Shown here: positions 18,855 through 39,180 of the stretch, piece by piece | How the letters are laid out: the number at the start of each line of letters is the position of its first letter | Position numbering within the stretch: the stretch's first letter is position 1 | DNA from: Escherichia phage teqhal | Sequence record: MN895435.1 | Reading direction: 5' to 3' (one strand) | Length of the DNA: 64,000 nucleotides | The notes under the pieces: generated by a model | Database searches by the model: none | Seen by the model: only the letters and a program-made list of their open reading frames with translations | Told to the model about the DNA's origin: nothing | Translations under genes and position numbers: made by a program

Positions 18855-20948
18855 ATGGAACTCATTACAGAATTATTTGACGAAGATACTACTCTTCCGA
18901 TTACAAACTTAAATCCAAAGAAGAAAATACCACAAATTTTTTCAGTTCACGTTGATGATGCAATTGAACAACCAGGCTTTCGTTTATGTACCTATACATC
19001 TGGAGGTGATACTAATCGCGATTTAAAGATGGGCGATAAAATGATGCATATTGTTCCTTTTACATTAACTGCTAAAGGTTCAATTGCTAAATTGAAAGGT
19101 CTTGGTCCAAGCCCAATTAATTATATCAATTCAGTTTTTACTGTTGCAATGCAAACAATGCGTCAGTATAAAATTGATGCCTGTATGCTCCGTATTCTTA
19201 AGTCTAAAACTGCTGGTCAAGCTCGACAAATTCAAGTTATTGCTGATAGACTTATCCGTAGTCGTTCAGGTGGAAGATACGTCCTTCTTAAGGAACTCTG
19301 GGATTATGATAAAAAGTATGCATATATTCTTATACATCGCAAAAATGTATCACTAGAAGACATTCCAGGAGTTCCGGAAATTAGTACCGAGCTCTTTACT
19401 AAGGTTGAATCGAAGGTCGGTGATGTTTATATCAATAAAGATACTGGAGCTCAAGTAACTAAAAATGAGGCAATTGCAGCATCTATTGCACAAGAAAATG
19501 ATAAACGTTCTGACCAAGCTGTAATCGTTAAAGTTAAAATTTCCCGTAGAGCAATTGCACAAAGTCAGTCATTGGAATCTTCTAGATTTGAAAGTGAATT
19601 ATTCCAGAAGTATGAATCTACCGCAGCTAATTTCAATAAACCTGCTACTGCTCCTTTAATTCCCGAAGCAGAAGAAATGAAGCTTGGAATTAATTCATTA
19701 GCTTCTAAAACTAAGGCAGCAAAAATTATTGCCGAAGGAACTGCGAATGAACTTCACTATGACTATAAATTCTTTTCAAAAAGTGAGGTTAATGAAGTTT
19801 CCGAAAAAATTAAAGATGTAATTCTTAATGCGATCAAAAATGAACCAACTACTTCAATAAAATGTTTAGAGAAATACGCAGCAGCTGTCAATCAATTCTT
19901 TGAAAAATATAAAGATAATTGGCTTGATAAACATAATAAAACTCGTAAAGGGCAGCCAGATGAAGTCTGGGAAGAAATAACTAAAAATTCCTGGAACGCA
20001 GCAAAAACTAAATTCCTCAAACGAATGATTTATAGTTTTTCTGGAATTGGTGCAGGCCCAATGATTGATATTACTATTGCCCGCGATGGTTCTAAATATA
20101 CTCCATCACAAAAGCGTGGCATTAGAGAATATTGCGGTTCAGGATATACTGACATCAATAATCTTCTTTTAGGTCGTTACAATCCAGAACGATATGATGT
20201 AATGAGTGAAAAAGAAATTGAATCTGCTATAAATAATTTAGATTCAGCTTTTGAAAATGGTGACCGTATACCAGAAGGCATTACAGTTTATCGTGCTCAA
20301 AGCATGACTGCTCCTATATACGAAGCACTAGTTAAAAATAAAGTGTTCTATTTCAGAAATTTTGTATCTACTTCTTTAACTCCTATCATTTTTGGACGTT
20401 TTGGAATTACACATGCTGGTATTGGTCTTTTAGAACCAGAAGCTCGTAACGAATTAACGGTTGATAAAAATGAAGAAGGAATAACTATTAATCCAAACGA
20501 AATAAGAGCGTATAAAGAAAATCCTGAATACGTTAAAGTTCAAATAGGATGGGCAATTGATGGAGCTCATAAAGTTAATGTTGTATATCCAGGAAGTCTC
20601 GGAATAGCAACAGAAGCTGAAGTTATTCTACCGCGCGGATTGATGGTTAAAGTTAATAAAATAACTGATGCTTCTAATAATGACGGAACCACGTCTAATA
20701 ATACAAAACTCATTCAAGCTGAAGTTATGACCACAGAAGAACTCACCGAATCGGTAATCTATGACGGAGACCATTTAATGGAAACCGGCGAAGTAGTTGC
20801 AATGACAGGTGATATTGAAATAGAAGACAGAGTTGACTTTGCATCATTTGTTTCATCAAATGTTAAACAGAAAGTAGAATCATCTCTTGGAATTATTGCG
20901 TCTTGCATAGATATTACAAACATGCCTTACAAGTTCGTTCAAGGATAA
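18855..20948 (+). CDS. alt: Alt-family ADP-ribosyltransferase (capsid-packaged), copy 1
   Basis: 697 aa from MELITELFDE...; C-terminal R-S-ExE motifs (YRAQ, VSTSL, EAEVILPRG). Confidence 0.85.
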   Translation: MELITELFDEDTTLPITNLNPKKKIPQIFSVHVDDAIEQPGFRLCTYTSGGDTNRDLKMGDKMMHIVPFTLTAKGSIAKLKGLGPSPINYINSVFTVAMQTMRQYKIDACMLRILKSKTAGQARQIQVIADRLIRSRSGGRYVLLKELWDYDKKYAYILIHRKNVSLEDIPGVPEISTELFTKVESKVGDVYINKDTGAQVTKNEAIAASIAQENDKRSDQAVIVKVKISRRAIAQSQSLESSRFESELFQKYESTAANFNKPATAPLIPEAEEMKLGINSLASKTKAAKIIAEGTANELHYDYKFFSKSEVNEVSEKIKDVILNAIKNEPTTSIKCLEKYAAAVNQFFEKYKDNWLDKHNKTRKGQPDEVWEEITKNSWNAAKTKFLKRMIYSFSGIGAGPMIDITIARDGSKYTPSQKRGIREYCGSGYTDINNLLLGRYNPERYDVMSEKEIESAINNLDSAFENGDRIPEGITVYRAQSMTAPIYEALVKNKVFYFRNFVSTSLTPIIFGRFGITHAGIGLLEPEARNELTVDKNEEGITINPNEIRAYKENPEYVKVQIGWAIDGAHKVNVVYPGSLGIATEAEVILPRGLMVKVNKITDASNNDGTTSNNTKLIQAEVMTTEELTESVIYDGDHLMETGEVVAMTGDIEIEDRVDFASFVSSNVKQKVESSLGIIASCIDITNMPYKFVQG

Positions 20949-20951
20949 ATC

Positions 20952-23009
20952 ATGGAACTTATTACAGAATTATTTGACGGCGCTTCGGCGCCGGTTGTTA
21001 ACTTAAATCCTAAGCATAAAATACCACAAATTTTTGCTATTCAAGCCGGCGAAGAAAGTGTGCTTCCTGGATTTAGATTTTGTACATACACCTCTGGCGG
21101 TGATACAAATAAAAACGTTAAGCCAGGCGATAAAATGATGCATATCGTAATGATAGGCGTCAACGAGAAATTATCGCTGGTTAAGCTTAGAAACTTGGGT
21201 GGAAATCCAATTGGCGTCATTAATGCGGTTTTTGATACTGCTCTTCAAACAATGAAGCAGTATAAAATCGACGCATGCTTATTCCGCGTACTAAAAAGTA
21301 AAACAAATGGCGCAGCTCGTCAAATGCAAGTTATTGCTGACCGTTTAGTACGTACTAAAGGAGCAGGTCGATATGTTCTTTTAAAGGAAATCTGGGATTA
21401 TGATAAAAAGTACGCATATATTATGGTTTACCGTAAAAATGCCAAATTAGAAGACATTCCAGGTGTACCTCCTATTTCAACTGAGTTATTCACAAAAGTT
21501 GAATCAAAGGTTGGTGATGTTTATGTAGACGTTAAAACAGGTAATGCTGTTCCTAAAGCTGTTGCTGTTGCTGCTTCTATTGCTTTAGAAAATGATAAGC
21601 GCACGGATCAAGCTGTTATTCAGAAAACTAAAATTAGTCGTCGATTAGCAGCGCAAGCTCAATATTCTACTGTTGATGCTTCACTTCAGGGTGATAGCTT
21701 CGCTGCTAAGAAATATCAAGAGTTTGAATCTAAAGTTCCGGTATATAAAGCAGAAGGACCAATGAACTCTGGCGTTATTCAGATTGGTTCAAACTTTAGC
21801 AAAGGAGCTATCGGTGGTATGAGAAGTGCTTCTCGTTTTAAATCTAGCGATTATGAACTAGAAAGTTTCCGAAATCATATTGCATTAGCCCATGCACGTT
21901 TACGTGATCCATCTATCAAGTTGCAGAGCGATATAACATATCAAGGTTCTCAAGAATATTTAAAGAATAAAGAATTCTTTGATTATAAAACTGATAAAAT
22001 TTTAAGCGATCTTGCTGATATTAATATTTCTAATAGCTTTGATGTTATTAAGAAAATTATCAATGATTTGGTTAAAGGTTCTAAAGCTACGCCAGATGAA
22101 AAGACAGCTATTATTCAATTTGTCATGAATGGCATTTATAAATTGATTAATGAATCTGCTGCTCAGGCATATGAATACGCAAGCACTGAAGTAACTCCAA
22201 AAGGACTGACTCAGGCTGAGTCTGATGTAATTGAAGATTATTGTGCAGATTCATATGTTGAAATGAACTCGTTCCTTTTGGGTAAACCAGATTCTACCCG
22301 TGAAGAATATATGGAACGAGCTATTAAGCACATTGAGACGTTGGATTCTGCATTCGCTAAAGGTTCAGTTCTTCCTCCAGGAACTACGCTTTATCGTGGA
22401 CAAGAAGTTACCTTTAAAACTTTGCGTCATAACATTGAAAACAAAATGTTCTATTTCAAGAACTTCGTATCGACATCGCTTAAACCAAATATCTTCGGTG
22501 AGCATGGTAAAAACTATATGGCTCTAGATGATTCCGGTGCAGTATTTTCTGGCGAAGGAGAAGGTTCTGTTGATGCAGAAGATTTAATGCATATGGGTAG
22601 TCATTCTGCATATGCTAATGAAGATGCTGAAACTAGCGTAGGTATGGTAATTAAAGGGGCTGAGCGAATCAAAGTTATCGTTCCAGGTCATTTATCAGGA
22701 TTTCCATCAGAAGCTGAAGTTATTCTACCACGTGGAATTTTGTTAAAGATTAATAAAGTAAGCACGTACATGATGAAAGAAACTGCTTATAACAAGTATC
22801 TAATCGAAGGCACAATCGTTCCTCCTTCTGACCAATTAGAAGAATCAGTATATGATGGCGACCATTTAATGGAAACTGGTGAAGTTCGTCCAATGGCTGG
22901 ATTTAATCAATTCCTTGTAGAAGAATCAAAAGAAGAGGAAAACGAAGTTTCTCAAATCTTGGCTTCTTTGGTTAACATCAACGGAATGTCTAAAAAGTTC
23001 AAAATGTAG
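20952..23009 (+). CDS. Alt-family ADP-ribosyltransferase paralogue, copy 2
   Basis: 685 aa, same N-terminus MELITELFD and conserved N-terminal ~230 aa; R-S-ExE motifs (YRGQ, VSTSL, EAEVILPRG); divergent middle region. Confidence 0.85.
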   Translation: MELITELFDGASAPVVNLNPKHKIPQIFAIQAGEESVLPGFRFCTYTSGGDTNKNVKPGDKMMHIVMIGVNEKLSLVKLRNLGGNPIGVINAVFDTALQTMKQYKIDACLFRVLKSKTNGAARQMQVIADRLVRTKGAGRYVLLKEIWDYDKKYAYIMVYRKNAKLEDIPGVPPISTELFTKVESKVGDVYVDVKTGNAVPKAVAVAASIALENDKRTDQAVIQKTKISRRLAAQAQYSTVDASLQGDSFAAKKYQEFESKVPVYKAEGPMNSGVIQIGSNFSKGAIGGMRSASRFKSSDYELESFRNHIALAHARLRDPSIKLQSDITYQGSQEYLKNKEFFDYKTDKILSDLADINISNSFDVIKKIINDLVKGSKATPDEKTAIIQFVMNGIYKLINESAAQAYEYASTEVTPKGLTQAESDVIEDYCADSYVEMNSFLLGKPDSTREEYMERAIKHIETLDSAFAKGSVLPPGTTLYRGQEVTFKTLRHNIENKMFYFKNFVSTSLKPNIFGEHGKNYMALDDSGAVFSGEGEGSVDAEDLMHMGSHSAYANEDAETSVGMVIKGAERIKVIVPGHLSGFPSEAEVILPRGILLKINKVSTYMMKETAYNKYLIEGTIVPPSDQLEESVYDGDHLMETGEVRPMAGFNQFLVEESKEEENEVSQILASLVNINGMSKKFKM

Positions 23010-27759: not shown

Positions 27760-28879
27760 TTTTAACCTTAACTGGGTCTATTGTTTCCAGTTTCGTTGCA
27801 TTAGTGAACATATATAGATGAGTTACTGAATTATTATTGGATAATTCATGGATAACTTCATCAACGTAAAATTCTGTTTTAAATTGGTTTTTACTATCAT
27901 TAAAAATAATTTTAACGCCAGGAGTCAAGTTAAAATTACCGACAGTAGAACATTTAGCATAGCCGTCATATTGTGCCATAGTTTGAAGACGAATAGCTTC
28001 TTCATATCCATTCCTATAAGTCATTTCAGAATAAGCACCTGACCTTGACACTACAATAGAGTTTTCACCCTTTCCTGTAGTAATCATTGGTAATGAAGAA
28101 TCTAAAAATGAATGCGCATAGATAGTAGCGTTTTTCATTGGATCACGTTTGTGAGGATTCGATTTAGTCAACCAAACGAAATCATATGCTAATGGATATT
28201 TTAATTCTTGGACAAATTGACCTATTAAAGATGGCTCACCGACAATCATTGGATATGGTTCTTGATTTATCATCATATCATAGTCCATCATGTTAACTCC
28301 CATGATGTCTTGCCATACAAATACAAATTTGTCGCTTCCTACAGCTAGAGCAACTTCTCTTACATATGACAAATAGTTTTCAAATGTGCTAGTCCATGGA
28401 ATATCAGGAACATAAGCATTTATAGCATTTATTGCTGGAGTTAATAATGTACGGTCTTGATAAATGACACCAAGCATTTCTTTTATAGATTCACCTGCAT
28501 CAGGGAAAAATGGTCTACCAAATTTAAGATTTTCTATAGAATGAATAGTTCCCAATTCAATAGCAATGATGTTATCACCTTTTGAATCTACTGACACGGA
28601 AAAATGCTTACATCCATAAATTCGTGTTTTAACATTATTAATATCATTTGCATTAGCTACAGAAATCTGAATTATTTCATTTCCATCCATTTTTGTATGG
28701 ATGTTTTTAGAATCATAAAATTGCAGCATTCCTTCATTTCGGCCATAAAGAGAATCCCGCATAGTTAATGTAGTAATAGTAGCAGCTAATTCAACAAATC
28801 TATTATTACTCCAAGCGTCGTAGCTATCAAATAATTTAACGCTGAGATTTGGATATCCGGGGCGTTGCAACATACTCAT
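27704..28879 (-). CDS. 27: baseplate hub subunit
   Basis: 391-aa ORF; size and position as T4 gp27. Confidence 0.9.
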
Positions 28880-29628
28880 TATTGTTTATCCTTCTCAATC
28901 AGTTTTAATACGAATCCGCGCTCAGCAGGAATCATTTTCATTATTGAATTTAAGCTATAATTACTTTTTACGAGTGTGTGATTAATTTGATAAAAAGTAA
29001 ATATCTCATCTGGGTTAACTAATAGCTTAAACACGTCTACTATATCAGTGTATTTTTTAATGTACTTATTACAGCATGACATATGTAGAGTTAAATTAAT
29101 AGGATTCATTGCATCGAGAATTTTTTCTAATGTTTCTATCTCGATAGCATCAACAAGTTCTATTTGACTTGATTCACTAATTTCCTTCCAATCATACCAA
29201 ATTTCATCTACTTGGACGGAATGAATATTTTCAGTAATCATCTTTGCTTTATTTTCATAAAACTCAGAAGGAAACTTTAATTTAATTTTAACATTAGCTA
29301 CATCAAAAACAGGTTCCTTTAATTCTTTTTGATATATTTCAAATGGAACTGTCTTTTCTTTTTTACATTTTGGACATACAAATGTGACCGGTACTTTAGT
29401 TTTACCTATTGACCCTACAAATACCTGCAAAAATATAAATGGTTGCCAAGTCTTCGGATAGTCTCCAAAATAATCATCAATTAAATCAGTAATTATTTCT
29501 TTTTGTTCTTGTGGTGACCGATGCTCTATATCGTTTCGAACTAACAAAAAATCTCGATAATCTTCTACCGTAAATGGTTTAAAACGATGAACACCATCTG
29601 GTAATTTACAACGAATAATGTTTGCCAT
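28879..29628 (-). CDS. 51: baseplate hub assembly catalyst
   Basis: 249-aa ORF; size and position as T4 gp51. Confidence 0.88.
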
Positions 29629-29645: not shown

Positions 29646-29653
29646 TATTTATA
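29646..29653 (-). promoter_or_regulatory. late promoter for gene 51 (TATAAATA on minus strand)
   Basis: TATTTATA on plus strand, 18 bp upstream of the gene 51 start. Confidence 0.7.
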
Positions 29654-29657
29654 AATA
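29650..29657 (+). promoter_or_regulatory. late promoter for gene 26 (TATAAATA), overlapping the divergent gene 51 promoter
   Basis: TATTTATAAATA contains both orientations; 21 bp upstream of the gene 26 ATG. Confidence 0.7.
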
Positions 29658-29678: not shown

Positions 29679-30305
29679 ATGTATGAATACAAATTTGACG
29701 TGAGAGTTGGTTCTAAAATAATCAACTGTCGCGCATTTACTCTTAAAGAATATCTAGAACTTATTACTGCTAAAAAGAACGGTTCAGTAGAAGAGATCGT
29801 TAAAAAGCTAATTAAAGACTGTACAAATGCAAAAGATTTAAACCGCCAAGAATCAGAACTATTGTTGATTCATTTATGGGCGCATTCTCTTGGAGAAGTT
29901 AATCATGAAAACTCCTGGAAGTGCACCTGCGGAACTGAAATACCAACCCATATAAATCTATTACATACACAAATAGATGCACCAGAAGACCTCTGGTATA
30001 CACTGGGTGACATTAAAATTAAATTCCGATACCCTAAAATTTTTGATGATAAAAATATAGCCCACATGATAGTATCATGTATAGAAACGATTCACGCTAA
30101 CGGGGAAAGCATTCCAGTTGAAGACTTAAATGAAAAAGAGTTGGAAGATTTATATTCTATCATCACAGAGTCAGATATTGTAGCTATAAAAGATATGCTT
30201 TTAAAGCCTACTGTTTATTTGGCTGTTCCAATTAAGTGTCCAGAGTGTGGAAAAACTCACGCTCATGTAATAAGAGGGCTCAAAGAATTCTTTGAGCTAT
30301 TGTAA
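29679..30305 (+). CDS. 26: baseplate hub subunit
   Basis: 208-aa ORF; size and position as T4 gp26. Confidence 0.85.
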
Positions 30306-31657: not shown

Positions 31658-31888
31658 TTAAAAGCTTTCTTCTACTTCATCGTCTGAATCTTCTAATTCA
31701 GCTCTTTTTCCTGCCAAAGCATCTCTCACAGAGATGTCATCAGTATCTTTTAATTCAGTTTCTTTAACTCTTTTCTTATAATAAGCTTCAAGTTCTTCTA
31801 GACCTTCTATCGTTTGACAAGAGGCAATTTTACCCATAAATTCATCAATAGAAGCTTCATAAAGAAATTGTTTAAATTCTAGTAACAT
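31658..31888 (-). CDS. uvsW.1: UvsW.1 (76 aa from ATG; track ORF starts at upstream TTG)
   Basis: MLLEFKQFLYEASIDEF...; acidic C-terminus; immediately downstream of uvsW. Confidence 0.8.
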   Translation of the reverse strand: MLLEFKQFLYEASIDEFMGKIASCQTIEGLEELEAYYKKRVKETELKDTDDISVRDALAGKRAELEDSDDEVEESF

Positions 31889-31900
31889 CTTTTTCTCCAA

Positions 31901-31914
31901 AGGGCCGAAGCCCT
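31901..31914 (-). other. hairpin between uvsW stop and uvsW.1 ribosome-binding site
   Basis: agggc-cgaa-gccct. Confidence 0.4.
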
Positions 31915-33422
31915 TATAAATTAACTGTTTTCATTACGTAATTAAATTTTTCATCTGCGTAGCGCTGAATACGATCAATGCCGTGTTTTAAAAGATAGTT
32001 CAAATGAACATATTTCTTTTTCGTATTAGCAGATTTTGGCTTAACACCACAATCATCTATGAGGTCCCAGACTGTTGCTATTGTCTTAGAACCATGCTTA
32101 CGTAATACACGACCGATTGTTTGTAATACAATGATTTTTGATTTAACACCGTGCGCTAAAACAACGTGATGTAGATTTTTAACTGAAATACCAGTAGAAA
32201 ATACACCATAACTAGCTACTATAATTATTCCTTTACCGTTTTCAGCTAAGGTTTTCATTACATTGCGGGTTTCGGTATCAACTTCCCCTGATACGTAATA
32301 AACTTTATCATATTCATTTTTAATTAAATCGAAAATAGCTTTACCATGTGATACATGCTTAAACATGACAAAAGCGTTTTCATCTTTTTGTGCAAGCCTA
32401 ATAGCTAATTTAGCGATCCATTTATTTCTTTTACTGAGCCCAGTAATAATTTTTATTTCTTCTTGGTAAGTTTTTCCCTTTAATTTAGTAGTGAACTCAT
32501 CGGGATAGCGAAGAAAAATACTATTAATTTTTAACTCAGTTACTTGTCCATCTTCCATTAATTTAGAAGTCGTTACTGGCTTAAATATTTCGCCAAACAT
32601 TCCAACATACTGCATGATATTAGCTTTGCCATCACGTAATGAACCAGACAAACCAAATTTAAACATGCAGTTATTTAAACCTGATATGATAGATGAAATA
32701 CTTTTTCCTGTAGCAAGATGACATTCATCATTCATCATCATTCCAAACTGTGAGAACCATTCTTTTGGTTGTTTTACTACAGTTTGCCATGTACCAACAA
32801 CGACTGGTGCATCATTTTTATATTTATCATCTTTTGATGCTCCACCGCCGATTTTCTTTATCATTGCATGACTGAATAAACGATAGTCAACAAAGTCATC
32901 AGCCATCTGAGTTGTCAGAGCAGTTGTTGGAACAATGATAAGAATTTTACCTTCATAATTTTCCAAATAATATCGCGCAAGCAAAGCTTGAATTAAAGAT
33001 TTACCTGCAGATGTTGGAAGATTAAGAATTCTACGACGATTAACTAATCCTTCGAACACTGCATCTTTTTGATACCAGTGTGGTTCAATTCTTTTATTTC
33101 CTGAATAGATTTCTAATTTAGAAAGCCATTCATCAAAATCTTTTCTTGATAATTCTTCTTTTTCGTTAATTTGCGGGTCAATCCAGGCTTTATAGCCAAA
33201 GTTATCACAGAACTTTTTAATTTGCCCGACTAAGCCGAATGGAAGAAGACGATTATAATCTAAAAGACGGATTCGTCCATCCCAGTTGCCATATCTGAAG
33301 CGAGGATTAAACCTATATCCATCGGCCTCAAACGAAAAGAAATCTCTTAATTCGTGGAACGTGCTCTCTTCACAATCGATGCGTACATGGCTGAAGTCGT
33401 GAAAATGTACTTTAATATCCAT
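31914..33422 (-). CDS. uvsW: UvsW DNA/RNA helicase (SF2)
   Basis: 502-aa ORF; Walker A TSAGKS, DECH box (NDECHLATG); matches recalled T4 UvsW. Confidence 0.93.
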   Translation of the reverse strand: MDIKVHFHDFSHVRIDCEESTFHELRDFFSFEADGYRFNPRFRYGNWDGRIRLLDYNRLLPFGLVGQIKKFCDNFGYKAWIDPQINEKEELSRKDFDEWLSKLEIYSGNKRIEPHWYQKDAVFEGLVNRRRILNLPTSAGKSLIQALLARYYLENYEGKILIIVPTTALTTQMADDFVDYRLFSHAMIKKIGGGASKDDKYKNDAPVVVGTWQTVVKQPKEWFSQFGMMMNDECHLATGKSISSIISGLNNCMFKFGLSGSLRDGKANIMQYVGMFGEIFKPVTTSKLMEDGQVTELKINSIFLRYPDEFTTKLKGKTYQEEIKIITGLSKRNKWIAKLAIRLAQKDENAFVMFKHVSHGKAIFDLIKNEYDKVYYVSGEVDTETRNVMKTLAENGKGIIIVASYGVFSTGISVKNLHHVVLAHGVKSKIIVLQTIGRVLRKHGSKTIATVWDLIDDCGVKPKSANTKKKYVHLNYLLKHGIDRIQRYADEKFNYVMKTVNL

Positions 33423-33424
33423 AA

Positions 33425-34042
33425 TTATGCCTTACTAAATTTGCCTTTAGAATCTCTTTTCATGAGACGACCTTTAATAAATCCGTCGGGAATAATACCG
33501 TCTGGTTGTATTAATTTATTTATTGCACCGTTATTGACCCAAAAAGTTCCTGTGGTAGTCGGTTTGACTTTACATCCTTTTCTGGACTTTCTATTAGGAT
33601 GAACCATTCCTTTTACAAATCCTTCTGGAACAAGTTCTCCAGGTTTAATAAAAATATTTTTAGTTCCATTGGTGTAACAAGTTGTACCTAATACCGTGCC
33701 CGGTGAGTTTTCAAATCTCTTAGCGGAAGATTCTTTCATCTTTGCTATAACCTCTGTAGTCATAACAATTCCACCAATTCCACCAGGTTTCATATTATAA
33801 TAATTTTTGCTTTTTATTATTTCAGGAGTTATAATTTCTTCTTCATACATGTACGCTTCTTCGGAAGTTTTAAACTCTTTTAGTATTGTTCTAGAGAAAT
33901 TGTTTTCACCATATTTCTTTATAGCCTGCTGAATTGCCTTACCGGAACCAAGGTAACCATCATTCAAGTCATCAGTAGAGTGTTTTCCTATATACTTTTT
34001 ACCGTTTATTAGATTTGTTGTTTCATATACAAAGTGGTACAT
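33425..34042 (-). CDS. GIY-YIG homing-endonuclease-like protein (seg-like)
   Basis: 205-aa ORF; N-terminal HFVYETTNLINGKKYIGKH matches GIY-(10-11)-YIG spacing. Confidence 0.75.
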   Translation of the reverse strand: MYHFVYETTNLINGKKYIGKHSTDDLNDGYLGSGKAIQQAIKKYGENNFSRTILKEFKTSEEAYMYEEEIITPEIIKSKNYYNMKPGGIGGIVMTTEVIAKMKESSAKRFENSPGTVLGTTCYTNGTKNIFIKPGELVPEGFVKGMVHPNRKSRKGCKVKPTTTGTFWVNNGAINKLIQPDGIIPDGFIKGRLMKRDSKGKFSKA

Positions 34043-34070
34043 ACTATTTTCCGAGTAATAAATATATCTA

Positions 34071-34078
34071 TATTTATA
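34071..34078 (-). promoter_or_regulatory. late promoter (TATAAATA on minus strand) upstream of the seg-like gene
   Basis: TATTTATA on plus strand 29 bp upstream of the minus-strand start. Confidence 0.55.
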
Positions 34079-34091
34079 CTGAGGAAATATT

Positions 34092-34772
34092 ATGATAGAT
34101 AAAGATTATATTGCAGAGCTGAAGGCTCTTGATGATAACAAAGAAGCTAAAGCTAAATTAGCTGAATATGCTGAACAGTTTGGTATAAAGGTCAAAAAGA
34201 ATAAATCTTTTGATAATATCGTTGTTGATATTGAAGAAGCCCTCCAGAAGCTCGCTAGTGAACCTATGCCGGAGACTGATGGGTTATCTATTAAAGACTT
34301 AATTGATGCTGCTGATGCTGCAGAGGGGTTAAAATATGACGATGAAGAAGTCAATCCAGAGGCAGCACTTCTGATTGATTCTCCGGTTAAATCTGACATT
34401 AAAATTGAAGTAGTAGAAATGGATAAAATTCCTGAAAATACCGATGTTTTGATTGAAGATACTCCTTTTGTTGAAGAAAAATTCGAGCAGGCTGTAGCTG
34501 AGATTATTGAATCTGAAAAGCCGTCTGTATTTACTCTTCCGGAAAACTTTAGTCCGAATCTTCAGCTGATTGGAAAAAATCCAGGATTCTGTACCGTTCC
34601 TTGGTGGATTTACCAGTGGATTGCTGAAACTCCGGATTGGAAATCTCACCCAACTAGTTTTGAACACGCGTCGGCGCACCAAACTTTATTTAGCTTAATT
34701 TATTACATTAATCGCGACGGATCAGTTCTAATTCGTGAAACACGTAATTCTTCTTTCGTAACATTAAAATAA
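34092..34772 (+). CDS. inh: Inh, inhibitor of prohead protease gp21
   Basis: 226-aa ORF; size and position (before hoc) as T4 Inh. Confidence 0.8.
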   Translation: MIDKDYIAELKALDDNKEAKAKLAEYAEQFGIKVKKNKSFDNIVVDIEEALQKLASEPMPETDGLSIKDLIDAADAAEGLKYDDEEVNPEAALLIDSPVKSDIKIEVVEMDKIPENTDVLIEDTPFVEEKFEQAVAEIIESEKPSVFTLPENFSPNLQLIGKNPGFCTVPWWIYQWIAETPDWKSHPTSFEHASAHQTLFSLIYYINRDGSVLIRETRNSSFVTLK

Positions 34773-34781
34773 GGATAACTT

Positions 34782-36200
34782 ATGGCTTTTACAGTTGATA
34801 TAACTCCTAAAACACCTACTGGAGTTATAGATCAGACTCAGCAGTTTACTGCTACACCCAGTGGTCAAACTGGAGATGGACCTATTACATATGCTTGGAC
34901 TGTAGACGACGCTCCACAGGAAGAAACGTCAGCAACTTTTAGTTATGTATTAAAAGGACCTGCCGGTCAAAAGACTATTAAAGTAGTTGCAACAAATCAA
35001 GTTGCCGATAGTAGTCCCGAAACAGCTGAAATTAGTACAACTATCACAGTTCAAAATAAGACACAAACGACTACCTTAGCTGTAACTCCTAATAGTCCTC
35101 CGGAAGGAGTAATCGGAACAGCTGTTGAATTTACCGCTGCTTTGGCTTCGCAGCCATCAGGCGCATCTGCTACGTATCAATGGTACGTTGACGGTTCTCC
35201 TGTGAGCGAAGCGACTAGCGCTACATTCAATTACACTCCTGACACAAGCGGAGTTAAAACAATCAAGTGTGTGGCTCAAGTAACCGCGACAGATTATGAT
35301 GCAAAAGAAGTTACTTCTAATGAAGTGTCATTGACTGTTAATAAAAAGACACAGATAACTACTTTGGCAGTAACTCCCGATAGTCCTTCAGCTGGAGTAA
35401 TTGGAACACCAGTTCAATTTACTGCTGCCTTAGCTTCTCAACCTGATGGAGCATCTGCTACGTATCAGTGGTATGTAGATGATTCACAAGTTGGTGGAGA
35501 AACTAACTCTACATTTAGCTATACTCCAACTACAAGTGGAGTAAAAAGAATTAAATGCGTAGCCCAAGTAACTGCTGAAAATTACAATGAAAAGGAAGTT
35601 ACTTCGAATGAAGTATCATTAACAGTTAATAAGAAGACAATGAATCCACAGGTTACATTGACTCCTCCTTCTATTAACGTTCAACAAGATGCTTCGGCTA
35701 CATTTACTGCTAATGTCACTGATGCTCCAGAAGAAGCGCAAATTGCGTATTCATGGAAGAAAGATTCTTCTCCTGTAGAAGGGTCAACTAATGTATATAC
35801 CGTTGATACCTCATCTATTGGAAGTCAAACTATTGAAGTTACTGCAACTGTTACTGCTGCTGATTATGATAGCAAAACTATTACGGCGGAAGGTCAAGTT
35901 CAGGTAACTGGTAAAGTTGCTCCAGAGCCAGAAGGTGAATTACCTTATGTTCATCCTCTTCCACATCGTACTTCAGCTTACATCTGGTGTGGTTGGTGGG
36001 TTATGGATGAAATCCAAAAAATGACCGAAGAAGGTAAAGATTGGAAAACTGACGATCCAGATAGTAAGTACTACTTGCATCGTTACACTCTCCAGAAGAT
36101 GATGAAAGACTATCCAGAAGTTGATGTTCAAGAATCACGTAATGGATACATCATTCATAAAACTGCTTTAGAAACTGGTATCATCTATACCTATCCATAA
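34782..36200 (+). CDS. hoc: Hoc outer capsid decoration protein with four tandem Ig-like domains
   Basis: 472 aa; N- and C-terminal regions match recalled T4 Hoc (376 aa); extra 96-aa Ig-like domain from internal tandem repeat. Confidence 0.9.
   Translation: MAFTVDITPKTPTGVIDQTQQFTATPSGQTGDGPITYAWTVDDAPQEETSATFSYVLKGPAGQKTIKVVATNQVADSSPETAEISTTITVQNKTQTTTLAVTPNSPPEGVIGTAVEFTAALASQPSGASATYQWYVDGSPVSEATSATFNYTPDTSGVKTIKCVAQVTATDYDAKEVTSNEVSLTVNKKTQITTLAVTPDSPSAGVIGTPVQFTAALASQPDGASATYQWYVDDSQVGGETNSTFSYTPTTSGVKRIKCVAQVTAENYNEKEVTSNEVSLTVNKKTMNPQVTLTPPSINVQQDASATFTANVTDAPEEAQIAYSWKKDSSPVEGSTNVYTVDTSSIGSQTIEVTATVTAADYDSKTITAEGQVQVTGKVAPEPEGELPYVHPLPHRTSAYIWCGWWVMDEIQKMTEEGKDWKTDDPDSKYYLHRYTLQKMMKDYPEVDVQESRNGYIIHKTALETGIIYTYP
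35061..35636 (+). repeat. in-frame tandem duplication (2 x 288 bp) encoding two Ig-like domains within hoc
   Basis: aa 94-189 and 190-285 align end to end (TQ[T/I]TTLAVTP...EVSLTVNKK), ~80% aa identity. Confidence 0.85.
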
Positions 36201-39097: not shown

Positions 39098-39124
39098 TGC
39101 GCTTTCCTTTTGGTTTATATGATT

Positions 39125-39132
39125 TATTTATA
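39125..39132 (-). promoter_or_regulatory. late promoter for gene 24
   Basis: TATTTATA on plus strand 28 bp upstream of the start. Confidence 0.7.
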
Positions 39133-39148
39133 CCATAAAAACAACTAA

Positions 39149-39167
39149 AGGGACCCGAAGGTCCCTT
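39149..39167 (-). terminator. terminator-like hairpin after gene 23
   Basis: gggacc-cgaa-ggtccc, U-rich tract follows on the minus strand. Confidence 0.6.
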
Positions 39168-39180
39168 AAATCGTCAAAGA

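Follow-up and report, generated by a model that had tools for sequence, protein, structure and literature searches.

A segE-type homing endonuclease gene between inh and uvsW in Escherichia phage teqhal, preceded by a late-promoter motif shared with phages that lack the gene

The closest described counterpart of the gene analysed here is segE of bacteriophage T4. In Table 1 of the review PMC2988022, segE appears as a free-standing, active gene of the GIY-YIG type, inserted at inh/uvsW and with uvsW as its target; the same review gives SegA, SegB, SegC and SegE as active enzymes and refers, where it deals with segE, to Kadyrov, Shlyapnikov and Kryukov (1997, FEBS Lett 415:75). Summarizing Kadyrov 1997, PMC2330249 names RB30 and RB52 as phages without segE, and its passages on SegE state that in T4 × RB30 mixed infections the enzyme makes its own gene home at an efficiency of almost 100%, that this homing requires integrity of the gene and homology, and that flanking markers are co-converted. 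Site-specific double-strand cleavage by T4 SegE, and over-inheritance that depends on the endonuclease in mixed infections, have been reported (Kadyrov 1994, 1997, cited through PMC2330249 and PMC2988022). As to expression, PMC2988022 gives segE a promoter in the non-coding DNA that precedes its open reading frame (ORF), describes a promoter for the downstream gene as embedded within segE, and has most of the endonuclease-specific promoters of T4 as middle promoters.

T4 SegA–SegD share with SegE the signature Y..Y-x-G-x-H-x-T...D-x-Y-x-GSG...KYG...E...YN..GG-x-G (33–43% identity), and SegB also shares its C-terminal motif W-x-N..I..IP-x-G-[FW]-x-KGR. They differ from SegE in their insertion loci and targets (PMC2988022, Table 1), and their C-terminal regions are otherwise unrelated to that of SegE, which has a repeat of ∼32 aa twice. 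I-TevI, the td intron endonuclease (1MK0 and 1LN0), has an N-terminal GIY-YIG nuclease and a C-terminal DNA-binding region, as does SegE, and both proteins keep Y6, Y17, G19, the Glu and the Asn (SegE numbering). However, I-TevI is intron-encoded whereas SegE is free-standing, the two are only 19% identical, and the I-TevI segment with Arg27 and His31 comprises 20 residues where SegE has 11 and no aligned Arg.

The DNA analysed here, called the window below, is a stretch of 64,000 nucleotides from Escherichia phage teqhal (MN895435.1). The gene under study, its neighbours and the parts of its product are as follows.

33425..34042, minus strand: segE coding sequence, 205 aa, with an ATG start and a TAA stop at 33427..33425
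31914..33422, minus strand: uvsW, gene of a 502-aa helicase, directly downstream of segE
34092..34772, plus strand: inh, 226 aa, divergent from segE
segE residues 1–90: GIY-YIG catalytic domain
segE residues 116–147 and 161–192: two C-terminal repeats of ∼32 aa (41% identical, E = 1e-8)

An earlier note on this DNA, made from the letters alone, had placed a 205-aa protein on the minus strand between uvsW and inh, which is what the ORF and its T4-like flanks confirm, and had called it a seg-like GIY-YIG endonuclease. The description was apt, although the name was missed: the gene is segE itself, its product being 99% identical to T4 SegE. The window protein agrees with T4 SegE (NP_049795) at 202 of 205 residues, gap-free and at equal length, and the three substitutions (I75L, E97D and T120K) are all conservative, with none at an invariant position. 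The DNA of the locus differs from that of T4 at 14 nucleotides over the 751 bp compared; the upstream spacer is identical and the flanks are ∼97–100% identical. The two phages are thus alike in protein length, in the neighbours inh and uvsW, in the promoter motif and in a 29-bp sequence within uvsW, the putative SegE site, and unlike in these substitutions and nucleotide differences. The T4 reference annotation runs hoc, inh (minus) and, on the plus strand, segE (there also of 618 nt) and uvsW. The window gene occupies the same slot, with inh (hoc.1) in divergent orientation on one side and uvsW, oriented like segE, on the other. Among the family models, Pfam PF19835 (SegE_GIY-YIG) matches at 37.6 bits (cut-off 25) and PHROG 314 (homing endonuclease) at E = 9e-44, and the generic Pfam GIY-YIG model PF01541 gives 20.9 bits, slightly under its cut-off of 22.6. 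On the strength of the 99% protein identity, the T4 locus, the T4 upstream spacer and the family scores, we assign the ORF with high confidence as the orthologue of T4 segE, a free-standing GIY-YIG homing endonuclease gene. It is an already known, textbook T4 gene at its known locus; 100% identical proteins have been deposited from several phages, including ESh18, T4_ev151, G2540-3 and PYPS2T.

Other differences from T4 were observed around the locus. The hoc gene (34782..36200, plus strand) encodes 472 aa where its T4 counterpart, of 1131 nt, encodes 376 aa; a 288-bp tandem duplication (35046..35639, 2.1 copies, 76% matches) accounts for this by adding one Ig-like domain. Downstream, uvsW and a separate uvsW.1 ORF (31658..31900, minus strand) are consecutive, as in T2 and RB33. 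A single fused uvsW of 1764 nt stands in the T4 reference record, which has a note on sequence discrepancies, and mismatches to that record cluster within uvsW at 32042..32081 (eight in 40 nt). ORFs of 427 and 521 aa, whose size and order would make them genes 24 and 23, are separated by only ∼83 bp (39098..39180). Given this short gap and the absence of any segD-like sequence anywhere in the window, the phage is without segD, the gene found in T4 between genes 23 and 24. No other GIY-YIG gene and no T4-type HNH endonuclease gene (seg, mob) was found in the window.

The N-terminus of the protein reads MYHFVY-ETTNLINGKK-YIGKH, i.e. Y6, ten residues and then Y17-I18-G19. Of the GIY-(10–11 aa)-YIG motif described in the earlier note, the literal YIG and the ten-residue gap are present, while the first element is FVY and not GIY; its counterparts in other T4 Seg proteins are YTY, YLY and LIY. 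Aligning the protein with T4 SegA–SegG and I-TevI leaves Y17, G19, S33, N83 and G90 invariant. Within SegA–SegE plus two diverged SegE homologues (described below) the invariant set is larger: Y6, N10, K15, Y17, G19, H21, T23, D28 and Y30, then G32-S33-G34, K43-Y44-G45, F49 and I53, and finally E67, Y82-N83, G87-G88 and G90. Glu75 of I-TevI aligns with E67 or E68, i.e. within one residue, and N83, equivalent to Asn90 of I-TevI, is invariant in all nine aligned sequences including I-TevI. The loop after YIG has 11 residues in all of SegA–SegE compared with 20 in I-TevI, and in this loop, where the alignment is unreliable, no residue of any of SegA–SegE aligns with Arg27.

A single-sequence AlphaFold model of the protein has a mean pLDDT of 43, with residues 1–70 scoring 59–71. 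The strands and helices of this low-confidence model follow the order expected for a GIY-YIG fold. Used for a coarse fold comparison and not for positioning side chains, the model finds its top PDB match in the I-TevI catalytic domain (1mk0; TM 0.53 on the target, E = 2e-4). A SegA–SegE profile compared with the PDB ranked I-TevI first, weakly (E = 0.13); a single-sequence phmmer search of the PDB sequences gave no GIY-YIG protein, its top hits being chance matches. The motif of the C-terminal repeats recurs at the end of SegB and has a further match in the C-terminus of an HNH endonuclease PHROG, and the C-terminal half of SegE is presumably its DNA-binding part.

Loss of the catalytic Arg or Glu residues on alignment had been named in the earlier note as evidence against an endonuclease. 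The Glu is present as E67; the Arg half of this proposal is ill-posed and does not apply, since no residue of SegA–SegE aligns with Arg27 even though enzymes listed as active are among them. The same lack of an aligned Arg could be read as a mark of decay, in which case segE would be a decaying or domesticated remnant with an intact but inactive ORF, like T4 mobA and I-TevIII, a reading to which the slightly low generic Pfam score and the presence of the T4 site sequence in the genome's own uvsW would also lend themselves. Against this, SegA, SegB, SegC and SegE, all active according to PMC2988022, have the absence in common, so that it appears to be a trait of the subfamily rather than a sign of decay. 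The ORF is moreover full length and three conservative substitutions, none at an invariant position, away from the experimentally active T4 enzyme, and the protein is maintained at an identity of at least 95% in 158 genomes. We consider a remnant scarcely credible and treat the gene as coding for a SegE of the T4 kind.

Searching with 901 bp around segE gave matches in 500 T4-like phage records, full-length in 158, and under these full-length matches the annotation reads homing endonuclease or segE, with uvsW and inh on either side. The gene is present in about 158 of roughly 600 T4-like genomes, about a quarter. The uninterrupted T2-type allele is found at an identity of at least 95% in ∼357 records, and further, RB69-like records match at 80–90%. 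Presence or absence at a fixed locus with clean junctions is the polymorphism seen for free-standing homing endonuclease genes. One of the matching records is unexpected: GenBank entry MG010123.1, a 32-kb ‘Staphylococcus phage SAJK-IND’, has the inh–segE–uvsW stretch at 20685..21585 with 97.7% identity and is probably mislabelled or contaminated.

In two other genera this inh/uvsW slot is filled by a diverged SegE homologue, namely in Salmonella phage vB_SenM-AKM_NP4 (Gelderlandvirus; 64.7% identical by tblastn) and in Escherichia phage KAW3E185 (Mosigvirus; 47.7% identical by tblastn; region L010 2501..3232), which ties the SegE lineage to its uvsW target across genera. Both have the position, orientation and domain layout of SegE, including the C-terminal repeats; unlike the window protein, that of KAW3E185 has an extra insertion of ∼40 aa after the catalytic domain. 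In vB_SenM-AKM_NP4 (L009 2480..5612) the downstream helicase gene is annotated in pieces, and a ‘hypothetical protein’ ORF between these pieces (L009 4089..4964) may be another insertion.

The segE-less phages T2 and RB33 allow the insert to be delimited to the base. The elements of the region upstream of segE and at its downstream end are as follows.

34043..34091: divergent spacer of 49 bp from the segE to the inh start codon (sequence, and comparison with T2 and RB33)
34071..34078, minus strand: exact T4 late-promoter motif TATAAATA, with 28 nt between the motif and the segE ATG
34054..34055: inh-side (left) junction of the segE insert (end of BLAST matches at 34055, and direct comparison with T2 and RB33)
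within 34043..34054, minus strand: GGAA, Shine–Dalgarno-like element for segE, 6 nt before its ATG and part of the insert
33430..33433, minus strand: AAGG, Shine–Dalgarno-like element for uvsW, inside the last segE codons and 7 nt before the uvsW ATG

The short control region that the earlier note had segE share divergently with inh is the 49-bp spacer listed here. In T2 and RB33, 50 bp separate inh from its divergent neighbour uvsW, and the spacer runs straight into uvsW: these phages read ...CAGTATAAATATAGATATATTTATTAC/ATGGTATTTAGAC-ATG(uvsW), and the window and T4 read ...CAGTATAAATATAGATATATTTATTAC/TCGGAAAATAGT-ATG(segE), where the slash is the junction. The BLAST matches from segE-less phages stop at window position 34055. 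The part of the spacer at 34055..34091 is thus common to alleles with and without segE, while 34043..34054, which is TCGGAAAATAGT on the minus strand, belongs to the segE insert; the insert starts 12 nt ahead of its own ATG. At the other end only 2 nt separate the segE stop codon from the uvsW ATG. From the positions of the two Shine–Dalgarno-like elements, the insert would supply the ribosome-binding sites of both segE and uvsW. The two genes are probably co-transcribed.

The earlier note had also pointed to a late-promoter motif upstream of the gene and had called it the gene's own. The first part is correct, with an exact TATAAATA reading from 34078 to 34071 on the minus strand. The second part fails: the motif lies in the portion of the spacer that phages without segE have as well, and there it stands at a like distance ahead of uvsW (29 nt in T2 and RB33, compared with the 28 nt before segE); it is identical in T4, T2 and RB33. 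As the T2/RB33 spacer has the same motif before uvsW, TATAAATA is not segE's own in origin, and the late promoter of segE would appear to be a captured uvsW late promoter and not one brought by segE.

The window contains 18 exact copies of TATAAATA (9.0 ± 2.9 expected; one of 100 shuffles reaches 18), ten of which are followed, after 14–28 nt, by a long ORF in the same orientation. Gaps of 28 nt are found also before ORFs of 659 and 524 aa, and gaps of 27 nt before ORFs of 269 and 427 aa; by size and order these four are genes 18, 20, 22 and 24. The spacing before segE is canonical for this genome, and it is this position, rather than the ∼twofold enrichment of TATAAATA alone, that lifts the segE motif above chance. 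We infer late timing of segE transcription from the motif. It could be argued instead that TATAAATA is irrelevant to segE, which would use some other (middle or read-through) promoter, and that the motif serves uvsW or nothing: it pre-exists before uvsW in segE-less phages, about half of its exact copies are expected by chance at the composition of the window, and the endonuclease-specific promoters of T4 are mostly of the middle class, as noted above. However, segE sits between the motif and uvsW, so that a transcript starting at TATAAATA must traverse segE to reach uvsW. The 28-nt spacing equals that before two large ORFs of late-gene size, the upstream non-coding region in which PMC2988022 puts the segE promoter is here only 49 bp long, and a scan for sigma-70-type promoters, which returned fewer sites than chance in the window, found none in the segE–inh spacer. 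An irrelevant motif is therefore improbable in our view, and we retain the captured uvsW promoter as the likely source of late segE transcripts.

The promoter for the downstream gene that has been described within segE was sought here, and the search of segE gave just a one-mismatch motif, AATAAATA, at 33524..33517 (minus strand). One-mismatch motifs carry no weight, since the window has 203 of them with 197 expected, i.e. the class is at chance frequency. The same AATAAATA, again one mismatch from the late-promoter motif, occurs on the plus strand at 34057..34064, in the part of the spacer common to both alleles; the inh ATG follows 27 nt downstream, and the segE insertion junction is 2 nt away. 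It is only a candidate for an inh late promoter; a late promoter upstream of inh is mentioned in PMC2988022. Elsewhere in the window, two exact copies of TATAAATA on opposite strands overlap by 4 nt (29646..29657), 17 and 21 nt upstream of the divergent ORFs 28879..29628 (minus strand) and 29679..30305 (plus strand), and look like back-to-back late promoters.

The other feature linked to segE lies within the adjoining end of uvsW.

33283..33422, minus strand: divergent uvsW block linked to segE, the first 140 nt of the gene (comparison with T2 and RB33)
33283..33311, minus strand: the 29-bp sequence TTTAATCCTCGCTTCAGATATGGCAACTG, uvsW codons 38–47, matched exactly once in the window, where chance would give none

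TTTAATCCTCGCTTCAGATATGGCAACTG is the putative recognition sequence of SegE (F-TevII in the old homing-endonuclease nomenclature), reportedly the one listed in REBASE and by Belfort & Roberts 1997. It lies 112–140 nt from the uvsW ATG and is exact in T4, whereas T2 and RB33 differ at seven of the 29 positions. A 29/29 match at the location that the literature gives for the target corroborates this putative site. Alleles with and without segE diverge by ∼28% over the first 140 nt of uvsW and by ∼2% elsewhere; in comparison with T2 and RB33 there are 10–12 mismatches per 40 nt in the block and 0–3 elsewhere across inh and uvsW. The block ends within TTTAATCCTCGCTTCAGATATGGCAACTG, and the divergence reaches zero at 33281, just beyond the end of the 29-bp sequence. 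The divergent 5′ allele of uvsW is found at an identity of at least 95% in 157 records and segE in 158, a comparison of totals. We interpret 33283..33422 as a probable co-converted flank that carries a variant target: a divergent block that is bounded at the site and linked to segE would be the signature of one-sided gene conversion initiated by a break.

I-TevI is autorepressed, and the SegE locus differs from it in having no operator-like copy of the target overlapping the promoter. An I-TevI-like autorepression of SegE through such a target-like operator was considered and rejected: the best match at the promoter is 14/29, which 1296 of 2000 shuffles reach.

The earlier note had attributed marker exclusion in crosses to endonucleases of this kind, and for segE both homing and marker exclusion are in print for T4 × RB30, in the passages on this gene in PMC2330249 and PMC2988022. 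A course of events at the present locus can be proposed on this basis. The gene is inserted between the inh–uvsW spacer and the uvsW start codon. Late in infection, transcription from TATAAATA, ancestrally the uvsW late promoter, would run through segE and then uvsW. The 5′ end of uvsW would hold, ∼110–140 nt downstream of the segE insertion point, an extended site that SegE binds and that it cuts preferentially in a co-infecting genome without segE. The break would be resected and then repaired by T4 recombination with the segE-carrying genome as template, and segE together with the adjoining ∼140 bp of uvsW would be copied into the recipient, giving homing, co-conversion and local marker exclusion. 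The nuclease activity, the nearly 100% homing in T4 × RB30 and uvsW as the target come from the literature on T4 SegE; the gene identity, locus, motifs, polymorphism, junctions and linked divergent uvsW block, with its end inside the putative site, are those seen here.

T4's own site is reportedly still cleavable by SegE, though less efficiently, and this would suit a different reading, in which segE mainly benefits the phage, for example by stimulating recombination or amplification at uvsW or by keeping out competitors, and is not a selfish homing gene. Roles of this sort have some precedent nearby: by the account of SegB in PMC13096335 (2026), that enzyme promotes amplification of anti-defence loci, and T6 escapes the Shedu defence system via uvsW mutations (PMC12904381). 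The window, however, holds no pointer to such a role. The patchy distribution, with the gene in about a quarter of genomes, and the insertion scar suit a selfish element, and the promoter region has no similarity to the target site that would suggest a regulatory role. We judge a mainly phage-serving segE to be very improbable, and selfish homing remains our preferred explanation of the locus.

The divergent 5′ end of uvsW changes four UvsW residues (R-F-R..N for K-Y-K..H, residues 41–46). Tentatively, and with more doubt than conviction, a ∼770-bp cassette (34054..33283), composed of segE and a foreign uvsW 5′ end of ∼28% divergence, may be envisaged that came from a distant T4-like lineage by one-sided conversion to the cut site and became locked in through its place between the uvsW late promoter and uvsW and through providing the ribosome-binding site of uvsW. 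If this were true, expression of uvsW would be disturbed when segE is cleanly lost, and the variant N-terminus of UvsW would move through the population together with segE; phenotypes that depend on UvsW, for instance escape from Shedu defence, could in principle be affected.

The discovery value of the locus is small, and what is added to the description of segE is descriptive only: the apparent capture of the uvsW late promoter, the likely supply of both ribosome-binding sites by the cassette and the bounded divergent block at the 5′ end of uvsW. It provides a worked example, at base resolution, of an endonuclease gene slotting between a promoter and its gene, and the pattern is useful for annotating like cassettes in less-studied phages and for reading mosaic boundaries in T4-like genomes.
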